Assembly: GCF_965196625.1 (NCBI RefSeq)
Contig: NZ_OZ239769.1
Span: 30,001 to 62,000 of the forward strand
From: Candidatus Saccharimonadota bacterium
GTDB lineage: Bacteria > Bacteroidota > Bacteroidia > Cytophagales > Amoebophilaceae
Reading direction: 5' to 3'
DNA length: 32,000 nucleotides
Positions 2,153-32,000 of the stretch are shown here, piece after piece. Positions within the stretch are counted from its first letter, which is position 1. Every line of letters starts with the position of its first letter. A program made the position numbers and the translations under genes. The notes beneath the pieces are model-generated. The model was not told the DNA's origin and ran no database searches. It saw nothing but the letters and a program-made list of their open reading frames with translations.

Positions 2153-2378
2153 TACATTTTTCCTAAAAATTTGCTTAAATTATACACTTGTTCGACCAAT
2201 ATTGTCAATGTAAGCAATCATCATTTCAAAGACCATCAACTTTGCTACACTCATAGTTTTCTTCTTTGCTAGTTAAGTGGAAAATTTGATCTTCAGGTTT
2301 AAAATATAAAGAAGCTTTTTAAAGCTCAATTCTAGCCTCTAAGCTTCCATGCAGGTTACTAAGTATATAATTCATTGA

Positions 2379-3926: not shown

Positions 3927-4010
3927 GCGGTGGAGTGCGTAAACGCCACTAGGTTGTAGAAGTTAAGGCTTGGTATCTATCACGTTTGTATTATCTGACC
4001 TCCTCATTTT

Positions 4011-5051: not shown

Positions 5052-5166
5052 TCTCACATGTCGCACCAGAAAACATGTTTTATGCAACATCTTAATAGTC
5101 TCTTAGCATATAGACTCACATTATAAACCAGCTTGAGTCGATCAATAGTGTATCATTGTAAGCAGA

Positions 5167-5198
5167 TGTAGTCAGGTTAAAAATTGAATCTGACTACA
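5167..5198. promoter_or_regulatory. Operator-like palindrome TGTAGTCAG-N14-CTGACTACA (the perfect stem actually extends 11 bp, 5165..5175 / 5190..5200)
   Basis: Read directly: gatgtagtcag gttaaaaattgaat ctgactacatc. Confidence 0.6.
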
Positions 5199-5411
5199 TC
5201 AATAAGCCTATAAAATATACTGAAAATGTGTTATATAATTATAAATATATTTCTGATATATAATAATGTAGTCAAATAAATTGGGTATAATAGTTACATT
5301 TACTATTCTATTAAGGCTTAATATATTCAGTTTATATAGTTAATCATTAATTAAGTTACTTCTGCTTACAAAATTCATTATGTATTCATAATCAGATCAA
5401 AAATATTTTTA

Positions 5412-16701: not shown

Positions 16702-17027
16702 ATATCGTTTAGTTAACAGGTTTATTTTATTGTCCCACTTTGGGAGAAAAGCCCCGCACTTGCAGTGCGTCGTTTCAACATAGTTAGTTATGTATATGTG
16801 CAGTATTAACCGATCAAGGGTTATGTGTGATAGACATGAATCGATAGACGGTAAACTCGGAGACTTTCAAGTTGAAAACTAGTTGTGGCTAAGGCATTCA
16901 TGCCGTAATCTTAAGCCCTATATTTGCAATGTAGGGTGTGTTAACTTAAACTAATTTTATTTCTATTCTATATTTTTTAACTAAGGTTTTATTTTATATA
17001 CCATTTAACAATTAATCATTAATCGTA

Positions 17028-17810
17028 ATGACGCATTCTATCAATATTAAAGGTTTAAAATTTTTGTTTTACATTATCATACCAGTTTCGTTAATGGGAA
17101 TGATGAATCCACCAGATCCGTATGTTCAAGCACGTGATGCGCTTATAGCAGATTATAATGGTCTACAGGGAAATAATAATCTACTTTTGGCTAATTATAA
17201 TCGTGAATTGTTAAACTCCTTTAACTCTATGCGTAATGGTGCTAATGACGCTGCCATCTGGGCTAACAATCAGCCTGCTCTTGCTGAAACTGATTCTAGA
17301 ATCGCACGTACTATATATGATAGAATCGTTGTCATGTTTGGTTACATTGCTCAACATGCTCAAAATGCTCAGGCTCGTGCAGCAGCTGTTCGAGCTAATG
17401 TGCAAGGTGTAGCAGCACTACCTATTGATCAGGCAATTTTAGGTGATTTAAATTTAGCGAGTGGTGTTAGAAGACGAGCTGAAGAGTCTTTTAATAATGC
17501 TGAAGGTGAATCTAATAGGGCTCAAAACTCTGCACAAGAGGCTAATGCTAGACATGCTAATATTCAACCAATAATAAATCGTATGAATCCTCCAATCCTT
17601 GGTATGCATTACACTAGGGAGCATATTGCGAATTATCGTGCGAATCATGCCAATATTCTAACTGAGTTTAATCAAGCTAATATATCTGCTTTTGAGGCTA
17701 AAACTCATGCTAATAATGTCCATAATCAGGTTAATCTTCTTAATACGCTAATTCAGAATATGATTATAATAGGTAATAGGCGTGGTATTGCTAACTTTCC
17801 ACAAAATTAA
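17028..17810 (+). CDS. Asn/Ala-rich secreted or membrane-anchored protein of unknown function
   Basis: Intact 260-aa ORF with a hydrophobic N-terminus (LKFLFYIIIPVSLMGMM), then helical N/A/Q-rich sequence. I recognise no family. Confidence 0.55.
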   Translation: MTHSINIKGLKFLFYIIIPVSLMGMMNPPDPYVQARDALIADYNGLQGNNNLLLANYNRELLNSFNSMRNGANDAAIWANNQPALAETDSRIARTIYDRIVVMFGYIAQHAQNAQARAAAVRANVQGVAALPIDQAILGDLNLASGVRRRAEESFNNAEGESNRAQNSAQEANARHANIQPIINRMNPPILGMHYTREHIANYRANHANILTEFNQANISAFEAKTHANNVHNQVNLLNTLIQNMIIIGNRRGIANFPQN

Positions 17811-18105: not shown

Positions 18106-18747
18106 TTAGATTTCTATTCCGACATATTTATCGATATGTGCTATTTTCCTTTTTCTATAATTTTTATATTCACAATCAATATAATTTGATTTAATATCCC
18201 TAGCAATAGACCTCTGTAGTTGTAAAAGGAAATTAATAGCCTGACCAGTTAAGTTCTGTTGTAGTTGCTCATTCCAGTCTTTTCCTGAAGTTACAGATAT
18301 TTTAGTAGGTTGCATACCTTCTTTTTTAGAAATATTTTCTATTAATTTTTGCATACGTTGACCTTCTTGATCTATATCAAAAGCCAATACTACTTCTTGG
18401 TTATGTTGTTTAGCCCCTTTTATAAGCGTACTGATTTCTTTAGCGATACTACTAGAAATAGTATCACAAGTAGCGATATACATCGTATTATCTTTTTCTG
18501 CATACAACTGTTTATAACTTAAAGCATCTATAGGACTCTCTGTGAGCACAATCTTTTGCACAAGAAAATTGGGATGCTTTAATACAGCTAACCCTCTAGA
18601 AAGCCCTTTTTGAAAGTATGTTCTACTTTTTATTTGCCCAGTGTTACCTTTAAAAAACTGGTAGGAAATAGTGTTACACATCGTTCCATTTCCCTGGTTA
18701 TCCAATCCTTGATAGAGACCAAATACCGCTTTTCTACCTACTTGCAA
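18106..18747 (-). pseudogene. Toprim-domain segment, probably the frameshifted C-terminal part of the upstream relaxase-DUF3991-Toprim gene
   Basis: Toprim pattern LTESPIDALSY ... VVLAFDIDQEGQRM. The ORF starts at a TTG and overlaps the upstream ORF by 10 nt. Its frame stays open upstream of that TTG. Confidence 0.6.
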
Positions 18748-20024
18748 AGAGGTGCCGATGTATAAGGCCCATAGATTGAGGCTGCAATACCACGGGCTGT
18801 TAAGTAATTTTCTTCTTTTTTTGAATCAATGCTATAAAAGTATGCTTTGGCTAGTTCAAGTGAAAATTGATTTTTTATGACTGTATCATCCAAATGCATA
18901 CTAGTTAGGCCACGAATGGACTTATAGCTGAAGCCGCGCTTTAACATAAAATCTACTATAGTTCCTTTGTCTTTATCATCTACTAGAGAGCTATAGGTCC
19001 AGTGGCCACTGTTATTTAGGCCATTTTTAATCAATATTTTGTCTTCATCTTTATCCATTACTGCCCATAATCTTGAGCTTTTATCTTTATTAAGCTGATA
19101 GCCCATAGAAGCAGCATGCTGTATTAAATTTACTTCTCGTTTGATACGATCTAAATCTGATCGTATGTTTTCTTTGATGATATTGCTATAGGTTTTTTCT
19201 GTTTCTAATGCTTTTATTTTCTGTTTTTCAGCTTCATAAGCATACGCACAAAGTTGATTAGATATATTCTGATGTACTTGTTTAAAGTTTAGTAGATTTG
19301 GCCTGGGTATGTCTGATGTAACAGCCAGCACTGTCTCCTGCTTTTTTTTAAGTGTTTTTTGTCTAAATTGACTGATAGGTATATGGCTACGTTCTGTTAG
19401 ATGCCTAGCTATCCCTCGATTTAATCCAAATTGTTTCATAGCGTTTGCATACCTATCTTGATAAGCCATCAGCATATGAGACCCTTCCATAAATCTTTTC
19501 GCACTTAATCTACCATCTTTACAGATCGGGACTACTACGCAGTGTATATGAGGTGTTTTTTCATCCCTATGTAGCGTGAAGCGAACAATATTTTCTGAGC
19601 CAAACTCCCGACAAGTAAACCCGTAATTTACTCTTTTCCAATCGTTAAATAAATTTTCATTTTGCTCAATTTCTTTCATCCGTTCATGGCTGCCGGTCAA
19701 TATAATACCTAAGGCTTTAACGGCATCTTTTCTAATTTCTTTGTTACCTTTGTATCCTGATTGTATTCTATTATGAATATCTTTTGCTAGGGTTTCATGT
19801 TTTAGAGGCGATAATTCTTCATTTAAATGCGTGCGTGTATGATCAATATGGGGGCCTAATAATTCACGCATTGCTGGGTCTATATCGTTTTTAAAGTGTG
19901 CTACATTTTGAGTCAAATTTTTTCTGTCTATATGTGTGCCTATTCTGCCTGTTTCTTTATATTTAGTGATGTGTAGTACGGCATATTGTATGGGTTGTAT
20001 CGTATATTGCTGCATATAAATCAT
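18738..20024 (-). CDS. MobV (Mob_Pre)-family relaxase with a C-terminal DUF3991-like region
   Basis: Motif I region THIDRKN...NDIDP and motif III HRDEKTPHIHCVVVPI (HxDE..PHxH). The C-terminal AASMGYQLNKDKSSRLWAVMDKDEDKILIKNG...DKGTIVDFMLKRGFSYKSI plus the final YLTARGI fit the DUF3991 pattern that normally precedes a Toprim domain. Confidence 0.8.
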   Translation of the reverse strand: MIYMQQYTIQPIQYAVLHITKYKETGRIGTHIDRKNLTQNVAHFKNDIDPAMRELLGPHIDHTRTHLNEELSPLKHETLAKDIHNRIQSGYKGNKEIRKDAVKALGIILTGSHERMKEIEQNENLFNDWKRVNYGFTCREFGSENIVRFTLHRDEKTPHIHCVVVPICKDGRLSAKRFMEGSHMLMAYQDRYANAMKQFGLNRGIARHLTERSHIPISQFRQKTLKKKQETVLAVTSDIPRPNLLNFKQVHQNISNQLCAYAYEAEKQKIKALETEKTYSNIIKENIRSDLDRIKREVNLIQHAASMGYQLNKDKSSRLWAVMDKDEDKILIKNGLNNSGHWTYSSLVDDKDKGTIVDFMLKRGFSYKSIRGLTSMHLDDTVIKNQFSLELAKAYFYSIDSKKEENYLTARGIAASIYGPYTSAPLCK

Positions 20025-20094
20025 GGGAAATTTCTTTCCCCTTTGCTTGATTATAGATTAACGAAATCGGAGAATAGGGCATTTGTGTGGAATA

Positions 20095-20130
20095 CACTTT
20101 ACGTAGTAAAGTATAGTGTGCTATACTTTT
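20095..20130 (+). other. Candidate MOBV-type oriT: overlapping hairpins ACTTTAC-gta-GTAAAGT (20096..20112) and AAAGTATAG-tgtg-CTATACTTT (20108..20129)
   Basis: Read directly, 71 bp upstream of the relaxase start. It closely resembles, as far as I recall it, the pMV158/MobM oriT core (ACTTTATGAATATAAAGTATAGTGTG/TTATACTTTA). Confidence 0.55.
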
Positions 20131-20234
20131 GAAAAAGTAGCCTACATTTATATGTAAGCTGTATGGGAAAAAGTAGTTATTTTTTACGTAGTAATGTTAC
20201 GTTGCTTTAATAAGATTTCAACAAGAGATTTATT

Positions 20235-21875
20235 TTACAACTTTATATGCTCTTCATGTATTTCATACGCCCAGTTATCTATCATCCTGGTTTCCTCATT
20301 GAAGTTAATGCCCAGTAGTATAATGGCTTTTTGCCTGAGTAAATAAGGTTTATAGTAGCCGTTTGATTTGATTTGTTCTAAAGCTATTTTCCCGGTAGAT
20401 CTATACTTTATCTCTATAATATAAATGGCTGTTTCTGATTCTAAAACGATATCCGATCTCCCTTGGCTAGAAGCGGACTCACTATGCATATGCATTTTTC
20501 TCCCACCTAAAAATCCCAGCCCTTGCAGTAACATATGTAAATTACTGTGGTATTGTTTTTCTTGCTTGGTATCTATATAATAGGGCAGTGTGGCAAAGGC
20601 TGTATTGATATATTCTATAAACATTTCAATTTTTTTGTCAGCTAGTGCCTTTCTAATTTTATCTCGCTCTTGTAAAAAATAATCTTTTACACTCTTTTCT
20701 AAACTGGACTTGATACTTTTCTGGAAGGAGGCTTCTATTTCTTTATTGGGAAACTTTAATGTATATAGATCAGTAGATTCATCATAATTGTCAATAGTGA
20801 GATATCCGGTTTGAAACATCAGAGATTTTAAACTAATCTCATTCCTACTTTCTGTATACATTAAGTCATCTCTGGTAGCTTCTATTTGGAGATTATTTAC
20901 CTGAAGATCAAACCTGTCAGGATCTGCTAACATTTGGTTAATGAGTAAACTTGGACTACCGGATTCGTACCAGTAGTTTGCTAATTCTCCAGTATTTAAA
21001 AACTTTAATGTAGACCAAGGATTATATACACTTATACCATCTTGGTGGAATTTATATCCATTGTAATAGGTTGCTATGTGGCGCATAACTTCTAGATCGG
21101 TTATGTTTTTATCCGCTTTTTTGCCCCATTGTACACCAATGGTATGTATGTTATCTGAAAAAGTATATACAATCTCTTCTTGCGTATATCCAAACATGGC
21201 ATCTGCATCTTTGGCAATAGTAATATCGTTTAAATGATTGGCCCCTGAAAATATATCCGATAAACTAAACTTACTAACACCTGTGATAAAGGTGAGTTGA
21301 AAATATTTGTTGAGGGATTTTAAAGTCATAAAGAAATCTTTCATCACTTTGATATTGGCCTTTTCTAGGTCAGAACCTTTGGTTAGGTGAACTATGGACG
21401 CGTCATATTCGTCTATCAATACTACTATTTTGGATTCATAATCATTCCCTAATTTAGTCATATCTTTAACTAAATTAGACAGTTTTGTTTTGAGAACCTG
21501 TCCAGTAAGTGTCAACTTGTGTGATGAAGCAACACACGTAAGTAAATCTTCTAAGGATAATTCAAGTAAATCAGGTGTGTTATTGTTTAACACTGAAAGG
21601 TCTAAATTAATAACTGGATATTTCTTCCACTGATAGCCATTTTCTTTTTTGCCTATATGATAATCTTTAAACACTTCTTGCTCTCCACTACATATAGTAT
21701 CTAGTGTATCAATAAACAGTGATTTCCCAAATCTACGAGGCCGGGCTATAAATACAGGGTTTTCTTTTTCTATTAGCTCTTGAGCATAGCGGGTTTTATC
21801 TACATAGTAGCCTGTTCGGATAACCCTTTCAACATCTGAATAGCCAATAGGAAGTGCATTAATCTTACGCATCAT
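20235..21875 (-). CDS. Predicted AAA-ATPase-like N-terminal domain fused to a PD-(D/E)XK nuclease-like C-terminal domain (AAA-ATPase_like + PDDEXK_9 architecture)
   Basis: N-terminus LPIGYSDVERVIRTGYYVDKTRY...FIARPRRFGKSLF, then VVLIDEYD. C-terminus GRSDIVLESETAIYIIEIKY (D..E.K nuclease motif). I prefer the start at ATG 21875 (MMRKINALPIG), 1 nt after the upstream stop, to the track start at 21920. Confidence 0.8.
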   Translation of the reverse strand: MMRKINALPIGYSDVERVIRTGYYVDKTRYAQELIEKENPVFIARPRRFGKSLFIDTLDTICSGEQEVFKDYHIGKKENGYQWKKYPVINLDLSVLNNNTPDLLELSLEDLLTCVASSHKLTLTGQVLKTKLSNLVKDMTKLGNDYESKIVVLIDEYDASIVHLTKGSDLEKANIKVMKDFFMTLKSLNKYFQLTFITGVSKFSLSDIFSGANHLNDITIAKDADAMFGYTQEEIVYTFSDNIHTIGVQWGKKADKNITDLEVMRHIATYYNGYKFHQDGISVYNPWSTLKFLNTGELANYWYESGSPSLLINQMLADPDRFDLQVNNLQIEATRDDLMYTESRNEISLKSLMFQTGYLTIDNYDESTDLYTLKFPNKEIEASFQKSIKSSLEKSVKDYFLQERDKIRKALADKKIEMFIEYINTAFATLPYYIDTKQEKQYHSNLHMLLQGLGFLGGRKMHMHSESASSQGRSDIVLESETAIYIIEIKYRSTGKIALEQIKSNGYYKPYLLRQKAIILLGINFNEETRMIDNWAYEIHEEHIKL

Positions 21876-21876
21876 T

Positions 21877-22818
21877 TTATCTTTTTTGATTTGTTTTTCG
21901 TTCTCTTTCGTTGATTTCATATTCTATCATACTTTTCCAAGCCAACCGATCTTGTTCTGCTGCGATAGAAATCCGGTCAACTTTAGTTAAAGTAGAAGCC
22001 TTCTCTCGTAATTTTACAGCTTTTTCTTTAAGTTTTGTTGAGGCAATAATATTTTTTTGCAGCAAATTATAAGCTGCTAGCCGTTCATTGACCTTAAGAC
22101 CAGCTGCATCATCATCTAATAGATACTGAATTTCTTTATTATTGGCTAGTAACTCATCGGCTTCTCTTTGATAAGCGTCTGCTAGGAGTAACTGTTTGGT
22201 ATGGGCATATTCCCCGACCGTACGATCATATTGAATTGATTTTTCGATGTCCTTATTAAGTTTTTTCAAATCGGTATATTTTCCATTTGCTGCTTTGATA
22301 CCTACTAATTTACCTGTATTTTTCAGGGATCTATTCACTGAATGAATGGTTTGTTTTTCTCTTGCACAGCTATATTTCATGTTCTTTTTGAGTTTATGGG
22401 TATATTTTGTTTCCGGTATATATCGAGCAGGGTTAAAACTAATACCTAATAAATCTTCTGTTTGACCTAAGATCATTTTTTTAAAGCTCATATTCTTGAG
22501 TCTTTTACCTAAGTTAACCGCATCTCTTACCGCTCTACCAGCCTTTTCTATGGCTCTTTTGGTTTCCATAGCGGTCCTGGCACTATCCCTGATTTTATCA
22601 AAAGTGCTTTGTTCTGTTTTTGCAATCGTTTTAAGAAGGTCTACCTGTTTGTCTTGCTTGCCAAATAGTTTTTTTATGGTGCTACCAAATGGTATATAAT
22701 CTAACGTACTATTCACCACATCTTTCAGGGTCTCTTTGGCTTTATCCCATGTATCTCCTGCATAAGCTACGGTAGCGGTTGATAGAAAGACTAGCCATAA
22801 ATATCTTTTAAAACTCAT
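21877..22818 (-). CDS. Secreted coiled-coil protein in the tra operon (no family assignment)
   Basis: Internal ATG 22818 gives a signal peptide MSFKRYLWLVFLSTATVAYA and forms an ATGA overlap with the TraM-like stop (22815..22817). The rest is Lys/Glu-rich and helical. Confidence 0.6.
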   Translation of the reverse strand: MSFKRYLWLVFLSTATVAYAGDTWDKAKETLKDVVNSTLDYIPFGSTIKKLFGKQDKQVDLLKTIAKTEQSTFDKIRDSARTAMETKRAIEKAGRAVRDAVNLGKRLKNMSFKKMILGQTEDLLGISFNPARYIPETKYTHKLKKNMKYSCAREKQTIHSVNRSLKNTGKLVGIKAANGKYTDLKKLNKDIEKSIQYDRTVGEYAHTKQLLLADAYQREADELLANNKEIQYLLDDDAAGLKVNERLAAYNLLQKNIIASTKLKEKAVKLREKASTLTKVDRISIAAEQDRLAWKSMIEYEINERERKTNQKR

Positions 22819-23588
22819 CTGTTTTTTAATTGTTTTCCTACACAAACATATACCTCTCTACCCTTATGCAGTTTAAAGAACTTGGTTTTAGTTACATCTT
22901 TAATGAATTGGGTAGCCATTTTACTTATTTCACTGGCTAAGCCTGAATCAGCTTGATCGGTGATCATATCCAAAACTTTATGACTGTTGTTTTCAATAAT
23001 CGGATTAACCCCTTCACAGAAGAGACCAGGTAAGAAATCGGTATCGTAACAAGCTAAAGAGGCCGGGAAGGTCCGATCTAGATACTGGGCTACATGGATG
23101 GCTATTAATATTCTATTTTTAGCAAATTTGGCTTTCCCATATAAAACTGTACCCGCTGGTAACACGGTATCATTAATGATACAATTTTCTTCTAGTTTAA
23201 GGATTACAGAACTTTCGTCTGTTACCTTTTGATTTTCATCTAAGTGGGCACGGTAGAAGGTATTTAATATTTCTTCTTGTGGGTTATCTTGATAGGAAAT
23301 AAAACCTTGGCTTGGTGTGGTTCGAACAGTAGTTTTTTTAGGTAATTTCGTGAACATAGATTTCTTTTTTTTAGGCTTTTTAGGTTTTGCTAAAGGTGTT
23401 AGGTTAAAGAGACCAGCCAGTGACGAGATCCCTTTTCTAGAAGTTTTTTTCAGGAGCGATTCTTTTTTACCAGATAGTTCTTCATCATACTCGTCAAGTA
23501 ATGTTTTGGCATCATTCTTTTTAACCTCTTGAAAATCTGGAACTTTTACGTTTACAGGATTAAAATTTTCTATTTTGTGTTTTCCCAC
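22815..23588 (-). CDS. traM: TraM-like conjugative-transposon protein (C-terminal TraM domain; no canonical start for its TM anchor)
   Basis: VILKLEENCIINDTVLPAGTVLYGKAKFAKNRILIAIHVAQYLDRTFPASLACYDTDFLPGLF...KFFKLHKGREVYV follows the Bacteroides TraM C-terminal pattern (V.LRL...IP.G....G.A....RL.I.I......PV.L.VYD.DG..G). Called start is GTG. Confidence 0.7.
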   Translation of the reverse strand: MGKHKIENFNPVNVKVPDFQEVKKNDAKTLLDEYDEELSGKKESLLKKTSRKGISSLAGLFNLTPLAKPKKPKKKKSMFTKLPKKTTVRTTPSQGFISYQDNPQEEILNTFYRAHLDENQKVTDESSVILKLEENCIINDTVLPAGTVLYGKAKFAKNRILIAIHVAQYLDRTFPASLACYDTDFLPGLFCEGVNPIIENNSHKVLDMITDQADSGLASEISKMATQFIKDVTKTKFFKLHKGREVYVCVGKQLKNR

Positions 23589-23605
23589 AAAGACCTTTCC
23601 AAAGG

Positions 23606-24430
23606 TTACAATAGCACCAATGACAACCAGTAATAGATATTTACGCTACCATAGTAGGGTGCTTCTAAAAGCAGACGCGCAGGTATAGATAAGTTCACCA
23701 AGCGACTACCAGATTGCTCAATAAAACCCACTAAGAGTTTTCGATTAATAGATGTAGTATAGCGCGGTAAGACGTATACAAACATTTTACTGCTATAAGC
23801 GGGTATGACTCGATCTTCTAAGCCATATATAGGAAAGACGAGTTTTCTGCTTTTTTTACTGTTGTAGTGCTGAAAGTTGGTTTCAAATAGTTCAAAGGTT
23901 AGACCTGTTTTGTTCTCCAAATATACTTTTAGATAGGTATACTCCTCATCATGAAATAGATTAGTAAGGATAAGGTCATAGTACCTGGTATGCTTGCCTA
24001 TATTAAAATAGGTTTGCTCCATCGATCGAATCTGTTTTATTTTTTGTAATACCTGATGGTCTAATGTAGGATGGGGGCTAGCCTCTTCTTCTCCTTTGCT
24101 TGTAAAATCATAGACTTCTTGCGGTTTATGGGTTGCACGCAATAGACCGTTAAAGACCTTATTACCTTGCTTAAAGGTAACCACTATAGAAGTAGCACTT
24201 GTACCTGGTTTGGTAGCCCGCAATAAAACCATGTTTTGGTTGATATTAGCGATATAATCTTTATTGGGCATGATGACCTCTTTAATAGCCTCATCAAACA
24301 ATAGCATCGAGGAAAATCGATGCGCAACTTCTATCTCCTCTAAAGGACTATAACTGGTTATTTTTTCTGCCGCTTGAGCAGTCAAACAAAAAAGACAACT
24401 TATTAGTAGGCTACGTATTATCTTGCACAT
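23606..24430 (-). CDS. traN: TraN-like conjugative-transposon protein
   Basis: Signal peptide from the internal Met (MCKIIRSLLISCLFCLTAQA). Blocks IEVAHRFSSMLLFDEAIKEV, MVLLRATKPGTSATSIVVTF, YLENKTGLTFELFETNF and IEQSGSRLVNLSIPARLLLEA parallel the CTnDOT TraN pattern. Confidence 0.7.
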   Translation of the reverse strand: MCKIIRSLLISCLFCLTAQAAEKITSYSPLEEIEVAHRFSSMLLFDEAIKEVIMPNKDYIANINQNMVLLRATKPGTSATSIVVTFKQGNKVFNGLLRATHKPQEVYDFTSKGEEEASPHPTLDHQVLQKIKQIRSMEQTYFNIGKHTRYYDLILTNLFHDEEYTYLKVYLENKTGLTFELFETNFQHYNSKKSRKLVFPIYGLEDRVIPAYSSKMFVYVLPRYTTSINRKLLVGFIEQSGSRLVNLSIPARLLLEAPYYGSVNIYYWLSLVLL

Positions 24431-25070
24431 ATTCACGCTTATTTTTAGGGTCAACAAAAGTAAAATCAGTAATGAGTAATCCATAGGGATTTTCTTTGCT
24501 TCTGTGCGTTGTTTTCACTTTAAAATAAACCCCTCCGGGTAGTTCTTTATGATCTAGGCCGCTAAGCTTTTTGCCTTCTAGCCCTAAGAACTGCAAAGTA
24601 GTTGTATAAAAAGCTACTACTTCGTAAGGATAATCCATCAGATTGGTCTCTATCTGTTCAACTGACAAGATGGATATACCGTTATAGCTTTTATATACCT
24701 GAAATACCTCCTCTTCGTTGTATTTACTTTTTAGAAAAAGACCACTTTTTTTATCCATAACCTGTAAACAAGCCAGTAAGTTACCTTGATAGGTATATTC
24801 ATTATGCTCAAAAGCATTTTTTAGAAACTGCATGGTAAAATTTTCTATTTCAAAGGGTTCTCGCCGAATGGATTGTTTTCTTTTCCCGCTACAATAGCTT
24901 CCTTCTGGCGTTACAAAATAGGTTAAGTCACTGTTTATAGCACCGACCCATTTGGCAGCAAAGAAACAAGTTAAGCCCGTTAAAATAGCAACAACCCCTA
25001 TACATAAATATTGTATACGCCCGATCAGCCTACTGAGCTTATAGCTATTGAATGCATTTACGTTAACCAT
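24411..25070 (-). CDS. traK: TraK-like conjugative-transposon protein
   Basis: ~210 aa, a single N-terminal TM, then a globular domain ending in ENPYGLLITDFTFV (compare TraK ..NPNGFIIEDFAIV). Located directly after the TraJ-like gene with an 8-nt overlap. Confidence 0.75.
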   Translation of the reverse strand: MVNVNAFNSYKLSRLIGRIQYLCIGVVAILTGLTCFFAAKWVGAINSDLTYFVTPEGSYCSGKRKQSIRREPFEIENFTMQFLKNAFEHNEYTYQGNLLACLQVMDKKSGLFLKSKYNEEEVFQVYKSYNGISILSVEQIETNLMDYPYEVVAFYTTTLQFLGLEGKKLSGLDHKELPGGVYFKVKTTHRSKENPYGLLITDFTFVDPKNKREYVQDNT

Positions 25071-25908
25071 TTTTATTGAAACTCTCTTTTTTAAGTTTAT
25101 AAATCTGTTTACCAGTTGCTACGATTTGATGTATGGCAAAGCTGGTTACGGTGGTAAAGATCATGCCGCCCATCATCTCTCCTATGTATAATCCTGTAAT
25201 GGTACCTACAATTAAATACATCGCTACTAATGCTACAGACCCTATTAAGTTTAACATATCGCATCCCGCTACCGTTTTGATATTTAACTGAATAATGCTT
25301 AGGTCTATTAACGCCATGGTAAAACCCCACATAAAGAAAGAGAGGTGCAAGCTAAACCAATTGGCAGCTATTTTTTGATACCTACCTGGTAAAGCACTCA
25401 TAGCAATGGCTAGTGGTCCTATTTGGGTAGAAAAAACAAGTAAATAACCCCTTATGGCGTGCATTACCCCTCTGGAAAACATTTGTAAAAAGCCCAATAC
25501 AAGATTTTTGATTTTATTGAGTATTGATTGAATGATATAGTTACCTGATCCCCAAAACCCATCTGCTTGATTGGTTTCCAGGTTTGCTTTTTGTGCTTCT
25601 AAGTATTTTTGCATCGCTTGATTCAAACCCAATTCGTCTATTAACGCACTGGTTATATGATCTAATACTTGATTGATCTCTTCGAAATGGCACAGCAATA
25701 GTGCCAATACCATCCCTTTGGCGATATTCTCTATAATGGCTGCTTTACTACTGACTTCATTTAATCCATCTTTGATGTATCGCACGCAAAAATCAATACT
25801 TATAAAGGTAGGCAGTAAGAATAGCGCAATCTCTGTTGTGGTCTTTGTAACTTGCCGCATAACACTCCAAACTTCACTAGAAACATAGTGCACAGATAGA
25901 TATTCCAT
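25063..25908 (-). CDS. traJ: TraJ-like polytopic membrane protein (VirB6-like role)
   Basis: Multi-TM protein positioned between the TraG and TraK homologues, as in CTnDOT-type operons. Confidence 0.65.
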   Translation of the reverse strand: MEYLSVHYVSSEVWSVMRQVTKTTTEIALFLLPTFISIDFCVRYIKDGLNEVSSKAAIIENIAKGMVLALLLCHFEEINQVLDHITSALIDELGLNQAMQKYLEAQKANLETNQADGFWGSGNYIIQSILNKIKNLVLGFLQMFSRGVMHAIRGYLLVFSTQIGPLAIAMSALPGRYQKIAANWFSLHLSFFMWGFTMALIDLSIIQLNIKTVAGCDMLNLIGSVALVAMYLIVGTITGLYIGEMMGGMIFTTVTSFAIHQIVATGKQIYKLKKESFNKNG

Positions 25909-25910
25909 GG

Positions 25911-28334
25911 CTATTTAGCTTGTAGTTTGCGTTGTCCGTCTACCCACTCAGCAATCCCTAATCGATCATCTCCTTTCGCTTGAATCAGCCTGGTAATAGC
26001 GTTTCTTTCATCTGGCCTAGAGGTGAGTAGTGCATGTTCCCAAAGTGATGTGTGCAGCAGCCATATGTTAGCCTCTCCCATTTCTTTGATAAAAACTTCT
26101 CTATATCCACTTGACCCATTTTTTCGTCTTAAGCTTTCATATTTTTCCCTTTCAAAGGGAGTCATGCCTATAAATGCTCCAATATCTTCCCTACTCGATT
26201 TTTTCTCATTGTAAAGCAGTATAAAAGTAGAGGCATTGTTTTTCATCGCACCAGCTATTTTAGAGGCTTTGATTTCATCTATGTTTTGGGTAATGATCCG
26301 AATGGAAGTTTTGGTTTTTCTGCCTTTTCTAAAAAAGGCTTCAATGTTTTCTTCGGCATAGTCATCTAACATCGTCCACCCTTCTTCAATGTCAATAAAT
26401 TTAGCTACGTCAGGATATTGGGCAACCATTTCAAAGGCAAACTCAAATAGCACTTGTACGACAAGGGGATAAAGTTTAGGATTGTTTTTGATTGCTTCTA
26501 ACTCAAAACAAATGAGTTTATGGTCTTCTAAATAGACCTGCTCGTAGGAATTAAAATGCGCTTTATAGATCCCATGGGCAAAAGGATGGAGTACAATGAA
26601 AAATTCATGAAATGGGAACAATCTATCACCAGTTAATCTTTGAATCTGTTTGTCTTTCTGATCTACTAGTTGTTTGAGATAGTTATAAAATCCAGTTAAG
26701 CTCGGTACAGAGGCCTTATCTAGAGTAGCATAATAGCCTGGTATCCATTCAAATAGCAGCGCTTTCTCTACTTCACTCATGGGATTTGCATTTAAATCTC
26801 CCTTCCATATTTTTCCAATCAGTTGTACCAAAAAAGTTACTTTATTGATATCTGGCTTAAATAAGCCATCTGCTTCAGGTTTGATCAGAAATGGATTTAA
26901 ATGGAGTGGTGTTTCGGCATTGTATTCGATGTATTTCCCGCCTAATATTTGAAAAAGTCTTCTATAGGTACCTCCACTATCTATTACAATCACTATATGA
27001 CCTGCTTGAAACCGATCCTTAATCATTTTTCCATTAAAAAAAGATTTACCAGATCCAGAAGGACCAAAAACAAAAGCATTTTGGTTGTCTAAGTCGAGAT
27101 TAAATGGATCATAATAGATGGGTGTTTCTTGTCTACTCGCCAGTAGTATACCACTATCACTACTGCTTCTAGGCGTAATCATATTGAAATAGGCCAGTGC
27201 AGTTTTAAGTGCCATCGGTTGACCCCGGTAAAGCTGATGGCCATTGCCGGGTATCGCTGAAAAATATAGATTAACGGTATCATAGTCCTCTACGAAAGGG
27301 GCGATATCTAGTGTTTTAAATACTTTTTTAACCTTTTCAATGTTATCAGCTAATTGTCTTGGATCTACTTCATAAAGGATAACCAGATAGTTCAAGGTTA
27401 CGATCACTTCTTCTTGTGTTCTAATGGCTGATTCAAAGGCAATCAACGCTTCCATATCTTGGTTTACATTACGAATGGCTCGGCCACTGCGTTTAGTCGC
27501 TTGGCTCCATTCTAATGCTTTGGTACGGCTTTGTAAAAAATCTTCTGTATTTTGAATGGCAATGGCTTGTACAACAATATGGGGACAGTCCATATAGTGG
27601 CTTAACGCCCAGGTAAAAGGTACGGTTACCCCTCCCCCATTGCCTAACCCGTTTTTACTGGTGTAGTCTGGTTTACTCGATTGGCTTTGCATCGATACAA
27701 TCGCTACCTGCTTATTACCAATTTTAAAAAATCCTTTTTGATTGGTCAGGCCATGCTCTAAACCATCTATGGTGCCACTAAAATCTAAGTTGAGCCAGGC
27801 ATAAAGCAAGTTAATATTATCTGATGCAGTCAACTGTCTATAGTGCCAACCATCTGGAAAGGCAGATTCTAACTCTAGGCTACATTTTTTTACTTGATCT
27901 ATTGTTTTATTGAGTTCTGCCAGTGGATGTTTAAAGCAACCTTTCCCACAAGAAAAAGTAGTCGTATGCGGCTCTATGCTATGGGTAGTAAGCCTACATA
28001 TGACGAATAGATAGGTTACATGGTTTAAAAAAATATGTCCATTATAGTGTTCAATCTGCTTTTGATGAAAAAAGTTGTAGTCATTTTGAGTTTCTATATA
28101 AAATGTTTTATTGGAATAGCTATCTAATTGTTGTATAACAGTTCCAATAGGAAATTTTCGAATGGTCTGGGCTAGGGTATCTATACAATTTTTATAGGTT
28201 CCCTCTCCTACCCCTTCATCAGGAAATAAACTCAATTGATAGCCTATGGCTACCGCTCCATCTTCCAAAATGATGGACCCATCTTGAAATTCAGTAATGG
28301 GTAGATAGTTTTCTATATATTTTTCTTGTAACAC
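25911..28334 (-). CDS. traG: TraG-family conjugative-transposon ATPase (VirB4 homologue)
   Basis: 807 aa. Walker A FVFGPSGSGKSF, Walker B-like VIVIDSGG / FIDIEEGW. Size and N-terminal pattern (YLPITEFQDGSIILEDGAVAIGYQLSL) are typical of Bacteroidota TraG. Start is GTG. Confidence 0.9.
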   Translation of the reverse strand: MLQEKYIENYLPITEFQDGSIILEDGAVAIGYQLSLFPDEGVGEGTYKNCIDTLAQTIRKFPIGTVIQQLDSYSNKTFYIETQNDYNFFHQKQIEHYNGHIFLNHVTYLFVICRLTTHSIEPHTTTFSCGKGCFKHPLAELNKTIDQVKKCSLELESAFPDGWHYRQLTASDNINLLYAWLNLDFSGTIDGLEHGLTNQKGFFKIGNKQVAIVSMQSQSSKPDYTSKNGLGNGGGVTVPFTWALSHYMDCPHIVVQAIAIQNTEDFLQSRTKALEWSQATKRSGRAIRNVNQDMEALIAFESAIRTQEEVIVTLNYLVILYEVDPRQLADNIEKVKKVFKTLDIAPFVEDYDTVNLYFSAIPGNGHQLYRGQPMALKTALAYFNMITPRSSSDSGILLASRQETPIYYDPFNLDLDNQNAFVFGPSGSGKSFFNGKMIKDRFQAGHIVIVIDSGGTYRRLFQILGGKYIEYNAETPLHLNPFLIKPEADGLFKPDINKVTFLVQLIGKIWKGDLNANPMSEVEKALLFEWIPGYYATLDKASVPSLTGFYNYLKQLVDQKDKQIQRLTGDRLFPFHEFFIVLHPFAHGIYKAHFNSYEQVYLEDHKLICFELEAIKNNPKLYPLVVQVLFEFAFEMVAQYPDVAKFIDIEEGWTMLDDYAEENIEAFFRKGRKTKTSIRIITQNIDEIKASKIAGAMKNNASTFILLYNEKKSSREDIGAFIGMTPFEREKYESLRRKNGSSGYREVFIKEMGEANIWLLHTSLWEHALLTSRPDERNAITRLIQAKGDDRLGIAEWVDGQRKLQAK

Positions 28335-28621
28335 AGTTTACTGTTTTTTGCGTTCATATACTTCGGTTGCTTGAAATGAAAAGCCATCCAAGAAAACAAA
28401 TAGGTGGGATTTTGGCTTTTTCTAGTAGATCTTAATAGGAGCAATAGTAGAAAACATGAAGCAGGACCGGTTAACATCCATAGCTTACTGATCTTAAAGA
28501 TTTTATTTAAAACCATTAACCCAAAGAGAGAGACCATGCTAAAGAGTACCAGTAGTAATGCTTCATGGGTATAAAGAGGACCTATCATCCCTCTTTTTTC
28601 TATGCTTTTATTAACGATCAT
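28313..28621 (-). CDS. traF: TraF-like small membrane protein (DUF4133, VirB3-like)
   Basis: MIVNKSIEKRGMIGPLYTHEALLLVLF... with two hydrophobic helices. It sits between the TraE-like gene and TraG, with a TAATG stop/start overlap with the TraE-like gene. Confidence 0.65.
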   Translation of the reverse strand: MIVNKSIEKRGMIGPLYTHEALLLVLFSMVSLFGLMVLNKIFKISKLWMLTGPASCFLLLLLLRSTRKSQNPTYLFSWMAFHFKQPKYMNAKNSKLCYKKNI

Positions 28622-28854
28622 TATTGATTACCAAACATATCCATAATTTCTGAAATGATAGAAGAGCAGACAAAGAAAAAGAAAATGCCTACTATCCACC
28701 AGATGGCATAGCTCATTGCTTCCTTTTTATCCCTGCTACTGATAAATTTTGCCGCTACCATCAATCCTGTAACGGTGGCTGCAATAATAAATATGGTGTT
28801 GGTAATACTGCCGGTCCAATCTTTTAATTCTTCTAAATTGTCATGTAATGCCAT
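28621..28854 (-). CDS. traE: TraE-like small membrane protein (DUF4134, pilin/VirB2-like)
   Basis: 77 aa, two TM helices, with the pattern AATVTGLMVAAKFISSRDKKEAMSYAIWWIVGIFFFF similar to DUF4134 (..GA.KVY.KW..GD.D..K.A..W..). Confidence 0.65.
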   Translation of the reverse strand: MALHDNLEELKDWTGSITNTIFIIAATVTGLMVAAKFISSRDKKEAMSYAIWWIVGIFFFFVCSSIISEIMDMFGNQ

Positions 28855-28860
28855 AGATTG

Positions 28861-30276
28861 TTAATGTTTTAAATCAGATATAAGGTTTTTTCGCATCTCC
28901 TTATAGAAATGAATATCGATAGCCGCTAACTGCTCCCTAATATTTTCGATAGTTATTGGTAAATGGCTAAATAATTTAGGCTCCTTATCCACTTCATTAA
29001 GGAATTCAGTTATCGTTTTTGGGTTCTCATCACGCCAAGTAGGTATGTATTTGTTTTCGAAGAAAACAAAACTATTCCTTATGGCAGAGTTTGCTAGGGA
29101 TAATATTTCAGAGGCACGTACAGCCCCTTCAAAACGAGCTTGATTTTCTTTTAAGAATGAATCATAGTCTTTAGCGATTGATGCTATTTTGGTTTTTTCT
29201 TTTTTCTGCTTTAGTAGGTTCTTCATTTTAGCAAGAATTTGTTTAGACGCTTTGATGGTTTTATCTCTGATATCTGGGTCTGTTGTAGTGTAAATTAAAT
29301 CCGAAAGTAATGTTTTATATTCGTTGATCTTGGATGCTAATATGGACAATATTATACTAGAAATATCTACCTGAAGTTTTTCTTTTCGACCACCTGGATG
29401 GATGATAGAGAAACCTACTATTGGCCTGCCAGATAGATTTTCAATAGCTGGGGAGCAACCTATGTAGGTAGTGCCTCCTTGTAACTTTAATGGTCTAGTA
29501 AGTTCATGACTACTTGACGCATCATGTAGGCTACCTGTTACCCCACCTTCAAAATGCCAATCTTCTATAATCCATGCTTCATCACCTATTAAATGGTTAC
29601 CACCTAACGTTAACGCAATATTTTCATTACAGATAATCTGAGCAAAAAATACCCTATCTTGAAGTGGATAATCAGTATTTTCTAATGAAACGGTAGTGGT
29701 ACGTAGTTTACTATTAGAATGATCTTCACTTAATGGCTTTAAAGTTTCTGAAAACTTTGTTTCTTCTTCTTGAATCGATTTTTGTATAGCTTTTTTGTGC
29801 CAAATATATAACCCGTAGGTTGCTAATTTATGGCTAGATTCAGGTGCCTCATTGCCATACTTATCTATCAATAAGGTGTCTAAGGTAATTGTACAATGGC
29901 CACTATCTTCATCAACCGCTGGTATAAAAAATAATGGATAGCCATCATCCTTATAGACAAAATCATGTCCATCCCCTAATAGATCTCGATTTTCTGTTTC
30001 TAAGTGCCCTGAGATGCCTTCTATAGATATCTTTTTAATCCTGAAGCCCATACCATTATTTTTTATATGTTCATTTTCAGATGTAAACAATATATGTATA
30101 GGAATCCTTTGATCTTCAAAATATCCTGTCTGGTTGTCTGACCTAAGTGAAACGGTATAACTCGGTGTCTGTCTTGATAAGTCTTGTTGAGCTCCCCTAT
30201 GGAAAAAACAAGCTTGCAAAGTGTTCAAAATGATCACTAAAAATAGTTTGAATAAATAAAATAATGGATGCATCAT
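28861..30276 (-). CDS. Putative lipoprotein leading the tra operon (two related beta-rich modules plus a helical tail)
   Basis: Signal with a possible lipobox (LNTLQA|C). Segments SENEHIKNNGMGFRIKKISIEGISGHL and NENIALTLGGNHLIGDEAWIIEDWHFEGGVTGSL look like an internal duplication. The stop lies 6 nt before the TraE-like start. Confidence 0.6.
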   Translation of the reverse strand: MMHPLFYLFKLFLVIILNTLQACFFHRGAQQDLSRQTPSYTVSLRSDNQTGYFEDQRIPIHILFTSENEHIKNNGMGFRIKKISIEGISGHLETENRDLLGDGHDFVYKDDGYPLFFIPAVDEDSGHCTITLDTLLIDKYGNEAPESSHKLATYGLYIWHKKAIQKSIQEEETKFSETLKPLSEDHSNSKLRTTTVSLENTDYPLQDRVFFAQIICNENIALTLGGNHLIGDEAWIIEDWHFEGGVTGSLHDASSSHELTRPLKLQGGTTYIGCSPAIENLSGRPIVGFSIIHPGGRKEKLQVDISSIILSILASKINEYKTLLSDLIYTTTDPDIRDKTIKASKQILAKMKNLLKQKKEKTKIASIAKDYDSFLKENQARFEGAVRASEILSLANSAIRNSFVFFENKYIPTWRDENPKTITEFLNEVDKEPKLFSHLPITIENIREQLAAIDIHFYKEMRKNLISDLKH

Positions 30277-30391: not shown

Positions 30392-30972
30392 TTATAGGTT
30401 GTACTGTAAGAAAAGACCCACTAATAATCCGCTAGTTCCTTTATCTTTAAAAAACCCAATACAAGGACCTATTCCTATACCAATAGTCCATTTTGATTGA
30501 AATAAAAAGTATAATGGAGCCCTAAGGTTACTCTGATATCCCACCCATTCCGATTTGGCAATCCAAAAATAATAGCCTGATAAGGACCATATTCTATAAT
30601 AGGTCCTAGAGACAAACTGATGTAATGGTGCGCATTTATAGCACAAAGTGTATATAAAAACGAGGGTGCAATGACCCATCGCATATGTTTTTTATAGTTA
30701 AATTTAACAGGTGAAATACCTCCACTTAAGTGCAAGGCTATCGATGGACTCAGATGCCCATGATAATAGATACCATAACACATCTGATGATCCGGCATTC
30801 TATGCCAAACTAGACCTACAGATTTACAACCTTCTGTATGTCTTAAAAATGGTGATTTAACTTCTTTTACATGACTAACTGTGTAACTAGTATGATTTCC
30901 TAAATCTTCTTTGCCCTGCAAAGGAGTATAAAACATTAAAAGCAGTATAAATATTTTGCGAAAGTATTGCAT
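30392..30972 (-). pseudogene. Signal-peptide protein with beta-strand-like alternating pattern (possible outer-membrane barrel), frameshifted near 30480..30500
   Basis: ORF 30475..30972 ends ..GLHYTFYFNQNGLLV*. The overlapping ORF 30392..30679 continues sensibly in another frame (..KWTIGIGIGPCIGFFKDKGTSGLLVGLFLQYNL*). The junction is at the caaaatgg A-run. Confidence 0.5.
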
Positions 30973-31051: not shown

Positions 31052-32000
31052 ATGAACCAAAATATTTCTATAGTATTTGCTTTTTTGATAGGCTATCAGC
31101 TGTTCTTTTACCTACATCTACTCTATTTAAATGATATAGCCCTTATACCTGATGCATTGGCTACACTCCTATCTTATTGTATAGCTGTGCAACATAACTG
31201 GATGGTGAATAGCCTATACGTACTATGCTTACTCCATTATCAATATGATAAAGTCATTAGGTTGATGGAAAGACTTAAACAAAAATGGCACTTTAACAGT
31301 TTGTTAATATTAGGTTGGGCGGTGCTTTTCTGTTGTTATGTAATGTATTACCCTATATTTTGGGTAAAAGGGAATTTCCATATCTGGTTATATCCCCTAC
31401 TTTTTTTATTAGTTACCTGTGTAATCTCATTGGATAACGATAAAGGGCATTCCCAACTGATCAATCCCACTAAGACGCAAAACAGAGAAAAGAATATCAC
31501 ATTACCTGCAGATAATGGACAATTACCCATTAATAATCCACAAAGGGGGATATACATTTTAGGAAACCAAGGTAGTGGCAAGACGCGCTATGTATTGGAG
31601 CCTATATTATACGCATTGATAAAAAAAGGTTATGCTGGAATCATCTATGATTATGACTTTGAAGGAAGACCCACTGCACTTGATCACAACTACTGTCTTA
31701 CAAAGTTCGCTTTTAACTGTTTTTTACAGTTCTGCGATCCTACTACATTTCAATTCCATAGCATCAATTTTACCTCTCTTAGACATAGTATACGCGTCAA
31801 CCCTATTGCACCAAGATATATTCTAAACAGGGCCTACTTAGAGGAATACACCAGTGTACTATTACATAACCTGGTTCCGGATAAAAAAGATGATTTTTGG
31901 AACCTAAGTACCAAAACATTGCTAAAAGGGATGATTGTTTTTTTGGCTAATAGAAGACCTCGGTGTTGTACCTTACCGCATGTTTTAGTACTGGCTACCA
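31052..32000 (+). CDS. Type IV coupling protein (TraD/VirD4/MobC-like), N-terminal ~316 aa; continues past the right window edge
   Basis: Hand translation from ATG 31052 has no stop to nt 31999. It begins MNQNISIVFAFLIGYQLFFYLHLLYL... (hydrophobic helices), then INNPQRGIYILGNQGSGKTRYVLEPILYALIKKGYAGIIYDYDFEG (Walker A in the T4CP context), later DDFWNLSTKTLLKGMIVFLAN. It is absent from the track, apparently because it lacks a stop codon in the window. Confidence 0.75.
   Translation, partial: MNQNISIVFAFLIGYQLFFYLHLLYLNDIALIPDALATLLSYCIAVQHNWMVNSLYVLCLLHYQYDKVIRLMERLKQKWHFNSLLILGWAVLFCCYVMYYPIFWVKGNFHIWLYPLLFLLVTCVISLDNDKGHSQLINPTKTQNREKNITLPADNGQLPINNPQRGIYILGNQGSGKTRYVLEPILYALIKKGYAGIIYDYDFEGRPTALDHNYCLTKFAFNCFLQFCDPTTFQFHSINFTSLRHSIRVNPIAPRYILNRAYLEEYTSVLLHNLVPDKKDDFWNLSTKTLLKGMIVFLANRRPRCCTLPHVLVLAT

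Follow-up and report, generated by a model that had tools for sequence, protein, structure and literature searches.

The type IV secretion systems (T4SSs) of CTnDOT-type conjugative elements, which belong to the mating-pair formation class MPF_B, have been related to VirB systems component by component (i.e., TraE to VirB2, TraF to VirB3, TraG to VirB4, TraJ to VirB6, and TraK to VirB8, with TraN being VirB9-like and TraM VirB10-like; Guglielmini et al. 2014, PMC4027160). In the reference Bacteroidales layout, taken from a Parabacteroides plasmid, the genes follow the order DUF4134, DUF4133, TraG, DUF3876, DUF4141, TraJ, TraK, hypothetical, TraM, TraN, TraO, and DUF3872. For Cardinium, the literature that we searched records only "traG" and cryptic plasmids; for Amoebophilus, it notes the insertion of an ancestral plasmid into the chromosome (PMC4007549, PMC6147030, PMC12342168, PMC3486910); an ancestral Amoebophilaceae plasmid with chromosomal insertion was proposed earlier from traG alone (PMC4007549). 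In published accounts, Cardinium and its relatives have no T4SS and depend on an antifeeding prophage (AFP)-like system. We analyzed a 32,000-nt stretch of contig NZ_OZ239769.1 (positions 30,001 to 62,000; referred to here as the window) that contains a nine-gene T4SS operon. The window is chromosomal DNA of the Cardinium endosymbiont of Nabis limbatus: 8 of the 10 window proteins tested have exact matches among the NCBI proteins of this organism, on a contig of 1,158,289 bp.

We assign a probability of roughly 75% to the reading that the operon belongs to a chromosomal, plasmid-derived conjugative element of Amoebophilaceae that has only recently ceased to function and, in this strain, is at an early stage of decay. 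In the Cardinium literature that we searched, neither the full module nor its subtype appears to have been described. The locus was compared with the chromosome of strain cSfur (L010; CP022339), plasmid pCher (L001), an Amoebophilaceae metagenome-assembled genome (MAG; L005), metagenomic Cardinium-like contigs (L011, L012, L013, and L021), and more distant Cardinium-like contigs (L014/L015), among others. The closest relative of the window element is L021, at 92% nucleotide identity.

The T4SS operon and its counterparts in relatives

Nine consecutive minus-strand open reading frames (ORFs) occupy positions 21877 to 30276 (ORF listing; Table 1), as the original prediction stated, and form a single-strand, tightly coupled operon. 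Direct reading of the junctions reproduced every figure that it gave. The lipoprotein gene X1 is followed by a 6-nt gap and the 77-aa traE-like gene, which overlaps the traF-like gene in a TAATG at 28621. Further along, we observed a 22-nt overlap between traF and traG (the virB4 gene, with a GTG start at 28334), a 2-nt gap before traJ, an 8-nt overlap of traJ and traK (ATGGTTAA), a 20-nt overlap of traK and traN (traN ATG at 24430), and an ATGA overlap of traM and X2 at 22815 to 22818. A 1-nt gap separates X2 from the AAA/PDDEXK gene if the latter starts at 21875 (ATGATG start). The 17-nt gap between traN and traM is also present, but it is the scar of a 2-bp deletion, which shifts the traM start (see below), and not a coupling junction.

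The assignment to a Bacteroidota-type T4SS was borne out by profile matches, directly for TraG/VirB4, TraM (PF12508), and TraN (DUF4138) and weakly for TraK. All NCBIfam equivalog scores of the operon proteins were far below their cutoffs. TraG/VirB4 matched the F-type TraC model (E value, 6e-61; 206 bits; below the curated cutoff) and, with a marginally lower score, Bac_Flav_CT_G (TIGR03783; 2.8e-59; 200.8 bits; below the cutoff of 261.55). The Pfam P-loop_TraG domain, by contrast with these two models, was clearly recognized. For TraM, the PF12508 score was 88 bits (cutoff, 25.1), and the match to TIGR03779 was significant but below cutoff. TraN scored 37.2 bits against DUF4138 (2.8e-9; above the cutoff of 31.1) and reached 1.6e-13 against TIGR03780, below the NCBIfam cutoff. 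Searches of PDB with the TraM, TraN, and TraK sequences returned no match.

The remaining assignments rest on intermediates or on weaker matches. TraK of the window aligned over its full length to TIGR03781 (Bac_Flav_CT_K) at 1.2e-3, and its Hymenobacter and Spirosoma orthologues matched the same model at 1.5e-14 and 1.9e-16. The window TraJ had no direct family match in profile searches, TIGR03782 included; its homologues, encoded at the equivalent position in Hymenobacter and Spirosoma, match TraG_N (2e-8) and Bac_Flav_CT_J (1e-7 and 3e-4). TraE matched TrbC/VirB2 slightly below cutoff (7e-6; 26.6 versus 27.9 bits) and T4SS_pilin at 1.7e-4. TraF hit no family at significance in direct Pfam/NCBIfam profile searches, its best direct match being to the N-terminal region of the VirB4 model NF045975 (0.005); its Hymenobacter homologue weakly matches the DUF3487/TIGR03750 conjugal-transfer membrane proteins. 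We assign TraF because of its position, size, topology, and conservation in all relatives. Of the families that had been proposed for checking, DUF4134 and DUF4133 thus went unmatched by TraE and TraF, respectively, in the profile searches. By homology, the gene order E-F-G-J-K-N-M would correspond to VirB2-3-4-6-8-9-10.

Two proteins that the original prediction left unassigned bracket this set, and the structure prediction that it proposed was informative for one of them. X1, a lipoprotein with no Pfam or NCBIfam match, has six close homologues of 461 to 542 aa, as well as versions of 564 aa (L011) and 963 aa (L014); its length is thus variable, and its dN/dS ratio relative to cSfur is 0.36. 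The AlphaFold2 (AF2) model (mean predicted local distance difference test score [pLDDT], 60; approximately 80 in the N-domain) consists of two beta-sandwich domains and a helical C-terminus. Among many generic Ig-like matches, Foldseek retrieved 4lba, 2l7q, and 2l3b (probability, 1.0; TMt, ~0.5), all of which are DUF3872 proteins; at the sequence level, no link to any solved structure, DUF3872 included, was found. According to this model, the N-domain of X1 is modestly similar in fold to DUF3872 lipoproteins, which occupy the TraQ position in Bacteroides conjugative transposons, and X1 is possibly TraQ-like.

X2 is a secreted all-helical protein with a strongly conserved central motif, GQTEDxLGIxLNPxRYIP. 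Its family has 41 representatives among 1.8 billion proteins, and no Pfam or PDB match was obtained, even in profile searches built on 27 distant homologues. The AF2 model (pLDDT, 50) was unusable for a fold search. An X2 homologue follows TraM in pCher, p_B (a plasmid of the Cardinium strain of D. farinae), L005, L010, L011, and L014. X2 is a member of an orphan family and marks the conserved 3' end of this T4SS type.

The layout had been regarded as reduced, re-ordered, and unusual relative to CTnDOT. The first two points stand against the Parabacteroides plasmid reference, in that no H, I, L, O, or P homologue is recognizable and N precedes M. The layout is not unusual within its own lineage: the same order was observed across Cardinium, Amoebophilaceae, Hymenobacter, and Spirosoma. 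Specifically, the module order is the same in cSfur (VirB4, 90% identical), metagenomic Cardinium-like contigs (72 to 88%), and the Amoebophilaceae MAG (65%), as well as on plasmids, i.e., pCher and p_B (VirB4, 47 to 49%) and those of Hymenobacter and Spirosoma (~30%). The compact order is the standard architecture of a Cytophagales sublineage of MPF_B rather than a local rearrangement. In relatives, the conserved module comprises a divergently oriented type IV coupling protein (T4CP; 544 to 614 aa), the 193-aa protein, X1, E-F-G-J-K-N-M, X2, the AAA/PDDEXK protein, and a MOBV-Toprim relaxase. The AAA/PDDEXK gene is a passenger between the T4SS genes and the relaxase that is found at the same position in the closer relatives (L010, L011, and L017/L018) and was not seen in L014/L015, where the relaxase lies on the T4CP side of the operon. 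The L011 homologue of the 193-aa protein (positions 2231 to 2812) weakly matches DUF3575 (9e-4, below cutoff), and this T4SS type may include the protein as a beta-barrel in the outer membrane.

Synteny with the cSfur chromosome covers the window module and extends through its flanks as far as the resolvase. Next to the T4CP gene, on its upstream side, cSfur also carries a second partial copy (L010 positions 960 to 5310) consisting of the X2 C-terminus, the AAA/PDDEXK gene, a second core of the origin of transfer (oriT), a 112-aa relaxase fragment, and IS256; this arrangement looks like a tandem or circularly permuted plasmid integration. Two further VirB4 genes of the pCher type bring the number in cSfur to three. 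In pCher itself, ankyrin-repeat genes lie both inside and beside the tra operon (L001 positions 3322 to 5022, 12217 to 13113, and 16606 to 17577).

Lesions in traM and in the DNA-transfer genes

All nine operon genes had been taken to be full length and the operon to be intact. Eight of the ORFs are indeed full length relative to those of relatives. The ninth, traM, has lost its start and membrane anchor through a 2-bp deletion at 23647/23648, which also extends TraN. Relative to cSfur and L021, the deletion converts GTAAAGCG to GTAGCG (the window reads ATGGTAGCGTAA where L021 reads ATGGTAAAGCGTAAA), and no other indel breaks a frame in the 7-kb traE-X2 stretch in comparison with either relative. 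In L010, L011, L012, L014, L005, and L021, the traM ATG overlaps the traN stop by 14 nt, and TraM begins with MVK(G/R)KYLLLVVIGAIVTFGKIFV. In the window, the conserved ATG opens a 3-codon ORF; the frame of the TraM body starts after a TAG and contains no ATG, GTG, or TTG before the GTG at 23588.

The resulting product lacks 22 N-terminal residues (257 versus 279 aa). The TraM proteins of relatives (279 to 302 aa; 279 aa in cSfur, the D. farinae strain, a MAG, and two metagenomic contigs) have an N-terminal transmembrane (TM) helix. The 19-residue Kyte-Doolittle maximum of 0.96 in the window versus 2.21 in relatives indicates that the only hydrophobic anchor is gone. TraN passes its old stop and ends in ...YYGSVNIYYWLSLVLL versus ...YYGKG, with an unrelated 13-residue tail. 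The products annotated by NCBI for the source genome are TraM of 257 aa, TraN of 274 aa, MobV of 425 aa, and VirB4 of 807 aa.

The damage reported around the operon was confirmed: the relaxase, primase, DUF1016/YhcG, and 193-aa genes are broken, and an IS256 copy is present. The relaxase-primase is a single ORF of 643 to 663 aa in relatives and is intact in L010, L011, and L014/L015. In the window, it is split into ORFs of 428 and 213 aa by a 2-bp insertion at 18760-18761 relative to two single-ORF relatives, and removing these 2 bp in silico restores a single ORF. Compared with cSfur and L011, the relaxase gene has also lost 33 bp in frame (18856-18859), in the Mob_Pre/Toprim linker and upstream of the frameshift. 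The 193-aa gene lacks 1 bp at 30490 that is present in cSfur and now occupies two frames, and the VapE primase gene aligns in two frames to a 757-aa pCher protein (residues 2 to 56 and 122 to 757).

The T4CP gene, which does not figure in the original prediction, and the candidate oriT showed no such damage. tblastn with the T4CPs of relatives detected one uninterrupted frame in the window, and the encoded residues are 100% identical to residues 1 to 316 of WP_419241473.1 (616 aa; TrwB_AAD_bind, TraG-D_C, and T4SS-DNA_transf domains) from the same genome, whose T4CP is thus intact. Upstream of the relaxase, a noncoding block (DNA fold z = -4.4) hardly differs between relatives that have coding DNA of only 79 to 90% identity (relaxase-upstream alignment). 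On the plus strand, at 20107 to 20129, this block contains a pMV158-type core made up of TAAAGTATAGTGTG and CTATACTTT (together, TAAAGTATAGTGTGCTATACTTT), which occurs once in the window (0 expected) and upstream of every relaxase copy in L010, L011, L017, and L018. The oriT of pMV158 reads ...ATAAAGTATAGTGTG/TTATACTTTAC... and includes a nick site and an adjacent MobM contact site (PMC5863519). The window core matches the nick region over 23 nt, including the contact site beside the nick, so that the element appears to have a recognizable MOBV oriT at which nicking would take place. The transfer set in the window therefore consists of an oriT and an intact T4CP gene, a frameshifted relaxase gene, and a channel set that is incomplete at traM.

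Table 1. Features of the window (positions in nt; TM, transmembrane; a period indicates no strand).
Feature	Position	Strand	Description
DUF1016/YhcG-type nuclease gene	4011-5051	+	Two pieces with ~270 nt of noncoding remnant between
VapE/Toprim primase gene	5978-8091	+	~65 codons gone; frame change near 6150
Tyrosine recombinase gene	8127-9020		
IS256 copy	11918-13132		
Serine resolvase gene	15147-15737		
MOBV (Mob_Pre) relaxase-Toprim primase fusion, pseudogene	18106-20024	-	Mob_Pre, 4e-30; Toprim_2, 6e-15
Candidate oriT	20093-20166	.	75-nt noncoding block upstream of relaxase gene; two hairpins
AAA-ATPase_like + PDDEXK_9 gene	20235-21920	-	Pfam, 2.7e-48 and 1.7e-12
X2 secreted all-helical protein	21877-22818	-	313 aa; signal peptide
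TraM-like/VirB10-like gene body	22815-23588	-	257 aa from GTG; PF12508, 1.2e-24
traM lesion site	23641-23652	-	Ancestral ATG (23652-23650) now followed by GTA GCG TAA
TraN-like/VirB9-like (DUF4138) secreted protein	23606-24430	-	274 aa (260 to 266 aa in relatives)
TraK-like/VirB8-like bitopic protein	24411-25070	-	219 aa; one N-terminal TM helix
TraJ-like/VirB6-like polytopic membrane protein	25063-25908	-	281 aa; multiple TM segments
TraG/VirB4 ATPase	25911-28334	-	807 aa; P-loop_TraG, 3.9e-58
TraF-like/VirB3-like membrane protein	28313-28621	-	102 aa; two TM helices
TraE-like/VirB2-like pilin	28621-28854	-	77 aa; two TM helices; directly before VirB3/VirB4 genes
X1 lipoprotein	28861-30276	-	Lipobox LQAC; Cys23 invariant
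193-aa protein, pseudogene	30392-30972	-	Precedes operon in all relatives
T4CP (VirD4/TraG-like) gene, 5' part	31052-32000	+	First 316 codons; divergent from operon; extends past window

The G+C content of the window is ~35% throughout. No housekeeping genes were present in the window, whose content consists of mobile-element functions (i.e., Pif1 helicase, VapE primase, tyrosine recombinase, IS256, resolvase, relaxase, and T4SS), and the whole window is apparently inside mobile DNA. A megablast search of the operon DNA against plasmids gave no match. Scanning for sigma-70 promoters and terminators yielded fewer matches than shuffled sequences, with a consensus that is not expected to apply to Bacteroidota. 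Two further plus-strand ORFs resemble parts of a single large p_B gene that is annotated "sodium:solute symporter family." One encodes a 687-aa HD-domain protein (89-2152; 61 to 78% identical to part of the p_B gene), and the other, a 662-aa ORF after IS256 (13190-15178), resembles the N-terminal part of the p_B gene. The two may be paralogues or fragments of one large gene family.

Selection, timing, and competing explanations

To compare constraint among the genes, dN/dS ratios between the window and cSfur were calculated by the Nei-Gojobori method (dS, ~0.3 to 0.55). The ratios for the channel genes were 0.03 (traE), 0.15 (traF), 0.14 (traG), 0.07 (traJ), 0.10 (traK), 0.10 (traN), and 0.13 (traM), which indicates purifying selection. 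The relaxase domain (0.16) was as constrained as VirB4, and ratios of 0.14, 0.10, and 0.37 were obtained for X2, the AAA gene, and the Toprim domain. With changes polarized by a third sequence, the core genes accumulated 126 synonymous versus 42 nonsynonymous changes on the window's own branch, against a neutral expectation estimated at ~1:3.9 (synonymous:nonsynonymous) from the implied site counts. Constraint therefore acted on the relaxase as well as on the channel genes until very recently, and all of the lesions are young.

Two candidate signals of relaxation were considered and rejected. Relaxed selection on the relaxase after its lesion did not fit the synonymous:nonsynonymous counts, which were 24:19 on the window branch versus 30:28 on the branch of cSfur, which has an intact gene. 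For traM, the nonsynonymous:synonymous ratio was elevated on the window branch (5:8) but equally so on the L021 branch (4:10), where the gene is intact, and did not support a lineage-specific relaxation. The dS value relative to L021 was uneven along 21877 to 28854 (~0.10 to 0.20 for traE, traK, traM, and traN; ~0.32 to 0.34 for traG, traJ, and X2), which suggests recombination between related elements.

The lesions differ among strains. In cSfur, the T4CP stops at 462 aa; L012 has a traN frameshift; L017/L018 have a traJ frameshift and a relaxase truncated by an insertion sequence (IS); and in L019 and the Philonthus strain, TraK is 85 aa, traM is split, and the upstream genes are replaced. 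The D. farinae strain encodes shortened versions of the T4CP (265 aa), VirB4 (721 aa), TraJ (254 aa), TraN (192 aa), and the 193-aa protein (95 aa). In L011 and L014/L015, every component carried is intact. The proposal that the channel was kept while DNA processing was lost is contradicted by the intact T4CP gene and oriT of the window and by the lesions in J, K, N, and VirB4 elsewhere.

These observations are most readily accommodated by a conjugative element in early decay. As homology suggests for the ancestral state, the MOBV relaxase-primase would have nicked the pMV158-type oriT that closely precedes its gene, and the VirD4-like T4CP would have passed the resulting complex of relaxase and DNA to a compact channel across the envelope. 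This channel would consist of VirB2-like TraE, VirB3-like TraF, VirB4 TraG, VirB6-like TraJ, VirB8-like TraK, VirB9-like TraN, and VirB10-like TraM, presumably accompanied by the X1 lipoprotein (possibly TraQ-like) and the secreted helical X2. Small indels would then have disabled the relaxase, primase, and 193-aa genes and removed the start and anchor of traM. In its present state, the element is most likely incapable of self-transfer and probably also of forming a working channel. Several points weigh against this reading. In contrast to four broken neighbors, eight of the nine operon genes are intact, with constraint evident even on the terminal branch, and some selective retention of the channel genes is conceivable. 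The traM lesion removes only 22 residues and could in principle be rescued by a rare CTG or ATT start or be an assembly error. In the window, a tRNA search found no tRNA that would mark an integration site, and neither att sites nor element ends were identified; for a window that carries no housekeeping genes, vertical inheritance and recent horizontal spread are both conceivable. To our knowledge, no experiment in any organism shows DNA conjugation by this T4SS type.

The original prediction raised a different use of the operon as a hypothesis, namely, that the channel is retained for effector export into the host or for DNA uptake after the loss of DNA processing. Such an exaptation would account for the eight intact and constrained channel-operon ORFs (dN/dS, ~0.03 to 0.15) beside a broken relaxase and primase, and it is compatible with the intact T4CP, which effector-translocating T4SSs also need. 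It also recalls the paralogous pCher, in which ankyrin-repeat genes are interleaved with tra genes and the RING/ankyrin gene CAHE_p0026 is reported to be highly expressed and a candidate for cytoplasmic incompatibility (PMC5698495). We nevertheless consider it very unlikely. The copy in the window has no ankyrin or effector-like genes, and its VirB10-like TraM has neither start codon nor membrane anchor. The oriT is perfectly conserved, and the relaxase was as constrained as VirB4 up to its frameshift. The same gene order occurs with an intact relaxase-primase and T4CP in L011 and L014/L015 (the relaxase is also intact in L010), and intact relatives keep the relaxase, oriT, and T4CP adjoining the operon, an outcome that the original prediction had itself named as refuting its hypothesis. 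Finally, the channel genes J, K, N, and VirB4 are themselves hit in other Cardinium strains, with no consistent pattern.

Early decay in situ must also be set against two readings that retain a conjugative function or origin. The T4SS could still act in trans, using a relaxase encoded elsewhere in the genome (for instance, on a paralogous pCher-type element) to mobilize other replicons or its own oriT. The T4CP gene, the oriT, and the other eight operon genes are intact; several paralogous copies are possible per Cardinium genome (cSfur has its three VirB4 genes and second oriT); and the traM GTG is preceded by CTG and ATT codons in the same frame. This scenario needs TraM to be made from such a noncanonical start or the deletion to be an assembly error, and both requirements meet obstacles: with a CTG start, the hydrophobic stretch would be shorter than a membrane helix requires, a 2-bp deletion in a 3-base A run was judged atypical of consensus error, and NCBI annotates the 257-aa TraM. 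On balance, function in trans is unlikely. We regard as somewhat less plausible still a very recent acquisition from a co-resident donor, which would leave the genes intact for want of decay time. In its favor, the lesions are few and small and come without an accompanying rise in nonsynonymous change, and the spread of dS relative to the closest relative (0.10 to 0.34 along the cluster) suggests recombination between elements. The synteny of the module and its flanks with cSfur, as far as the resolvase, argues against a recent arrival, as does the presence of cluster members of 90% identity in several Cardinium genomes, which fits long residence in the genus. We conclude that the element in itself is an ordinary decaying conjugative element and that its exaptation for secretion is unsupported.

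Comparison with known systems

A near-complete module of T4SS, T4CP, MOBV relaxase, and oriT is now documented in several Cardinium chromosomes and plasmids. It defines a compact Bacteroidota T4SS subtype (VirB2-3-4-6-8-9-10 plus two orphan proteins) that is also found on plasmids of free-living Cytophagales. In these maternally inherited endosymbionts, purifying selection persists to the tips, which implies that the elements recently benefited from conjugation and bears on gene exchange among Cardinium strains. A bolder proposition, which we consider unlikely, is that the Cardinium group carries an unrecognized compact, VirB-collinear T4SS that is now or was recently active in host cells. If so, it could serve co-infecting symbionts in exchanging DNA, and intact copies such as that of pCher, with its interleaved ankyrin genes, could deliver effectors to the host.

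Like CTnDOT-type MPF_B systems, the window operon is a tightly coupled single-strand operon with small TraE-like and TraF-like membrane proteins before VirB4; the TraG/VirB4, TraM, and TraN relationships are direct, and those of TraJ and TraK are weak or run via intermediates. It differs in that no TraH (DUF3876), TraI (DUF4141), TraL, TraO, or TraP was recognizable in profile searches, and in the order K-N-M (VirB8-9-10) versus K-L-M-N in CTnDOT. TraM is also shorter (~280 aa versus ~410 to 430 aa), and the window type has the clade-specific X1 and X2, a MOBV-Toprim relaxase, and a pMV158-type oriT.

The plasmids pCher (cEper1) and p_B (D. farinae strain), from the same family (Amoebophilaceae), share the gene order, the X2 homologue after TraM, the upstream T4CP, and a VapE primase and MOBV relaxase on the element. 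They differ in representing a paralogous lineage, in being plasmid-borne, in having ankyrin genes between the tra genes, and in encoding an 858-aa protein at the X1 position. The plasmids unnamed1 of Hymenobacter sublimis and pSLIN02 of Spirosoma linguale have a comparable layout (small-small-VirB4-J-(x)-K-N-M-hypothetical), with J and K separated by an additional lipoprotein-like gene, longer TraJ and TraM proteins, and, according to MOB-suite, a MOBB relaxase; unlike the window copy, they are not degraded. In PLSDB, the MOB-suite calls are "mobilizable" for the Hymenobacter and Spirosoma plasmids, "non-mobilizable" for p_B, and MPF_T for pCher, from which we infer that standard plasmid typing misses this T4SS subtype.

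The MobM relaxase and oriT of pMV158 (the MOBV1 prototype) share with the window the Mob_Pre domain and the core TAAAGTATAGTGTG, which is identical at the contact site and in the nick context and lies in an inverted repeat. In the window, the relaxase is fused to a Toprim domain and is coupled to its own T4SS rather than carried by a mobilizable plasmid, and the core (GTGTG loop) is on the strand opposite the relaxase gene. The RAGE/tra clusters (Rickettsiales amplified genetic elements) of Rickettsia and Orientia (PMC9997750 and PMC4564193), both obligate intracellular bacteria, are likewise decaying multicopy conjugation modules in endosymbiont chromosomes with strain-specific pseudogenes; their T4SS is F-type as opposed to an MPF_B derivative and their relaxase is another, so that the likeness is one of analogy, with homology limited to VirB4 and the T4CP. 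Effector T4SSs (e.g., Dot/Icm and the vir system of Rickettsiales) have dedicated effectors, stand apart from any relaxase and oriT, and are conserved uniformly in the host-associated lineage; they differ from the system described here, in which the relaxase and oriT adjoin the operon in all relatives and the cluster is variably degraded among Cardinium strains.

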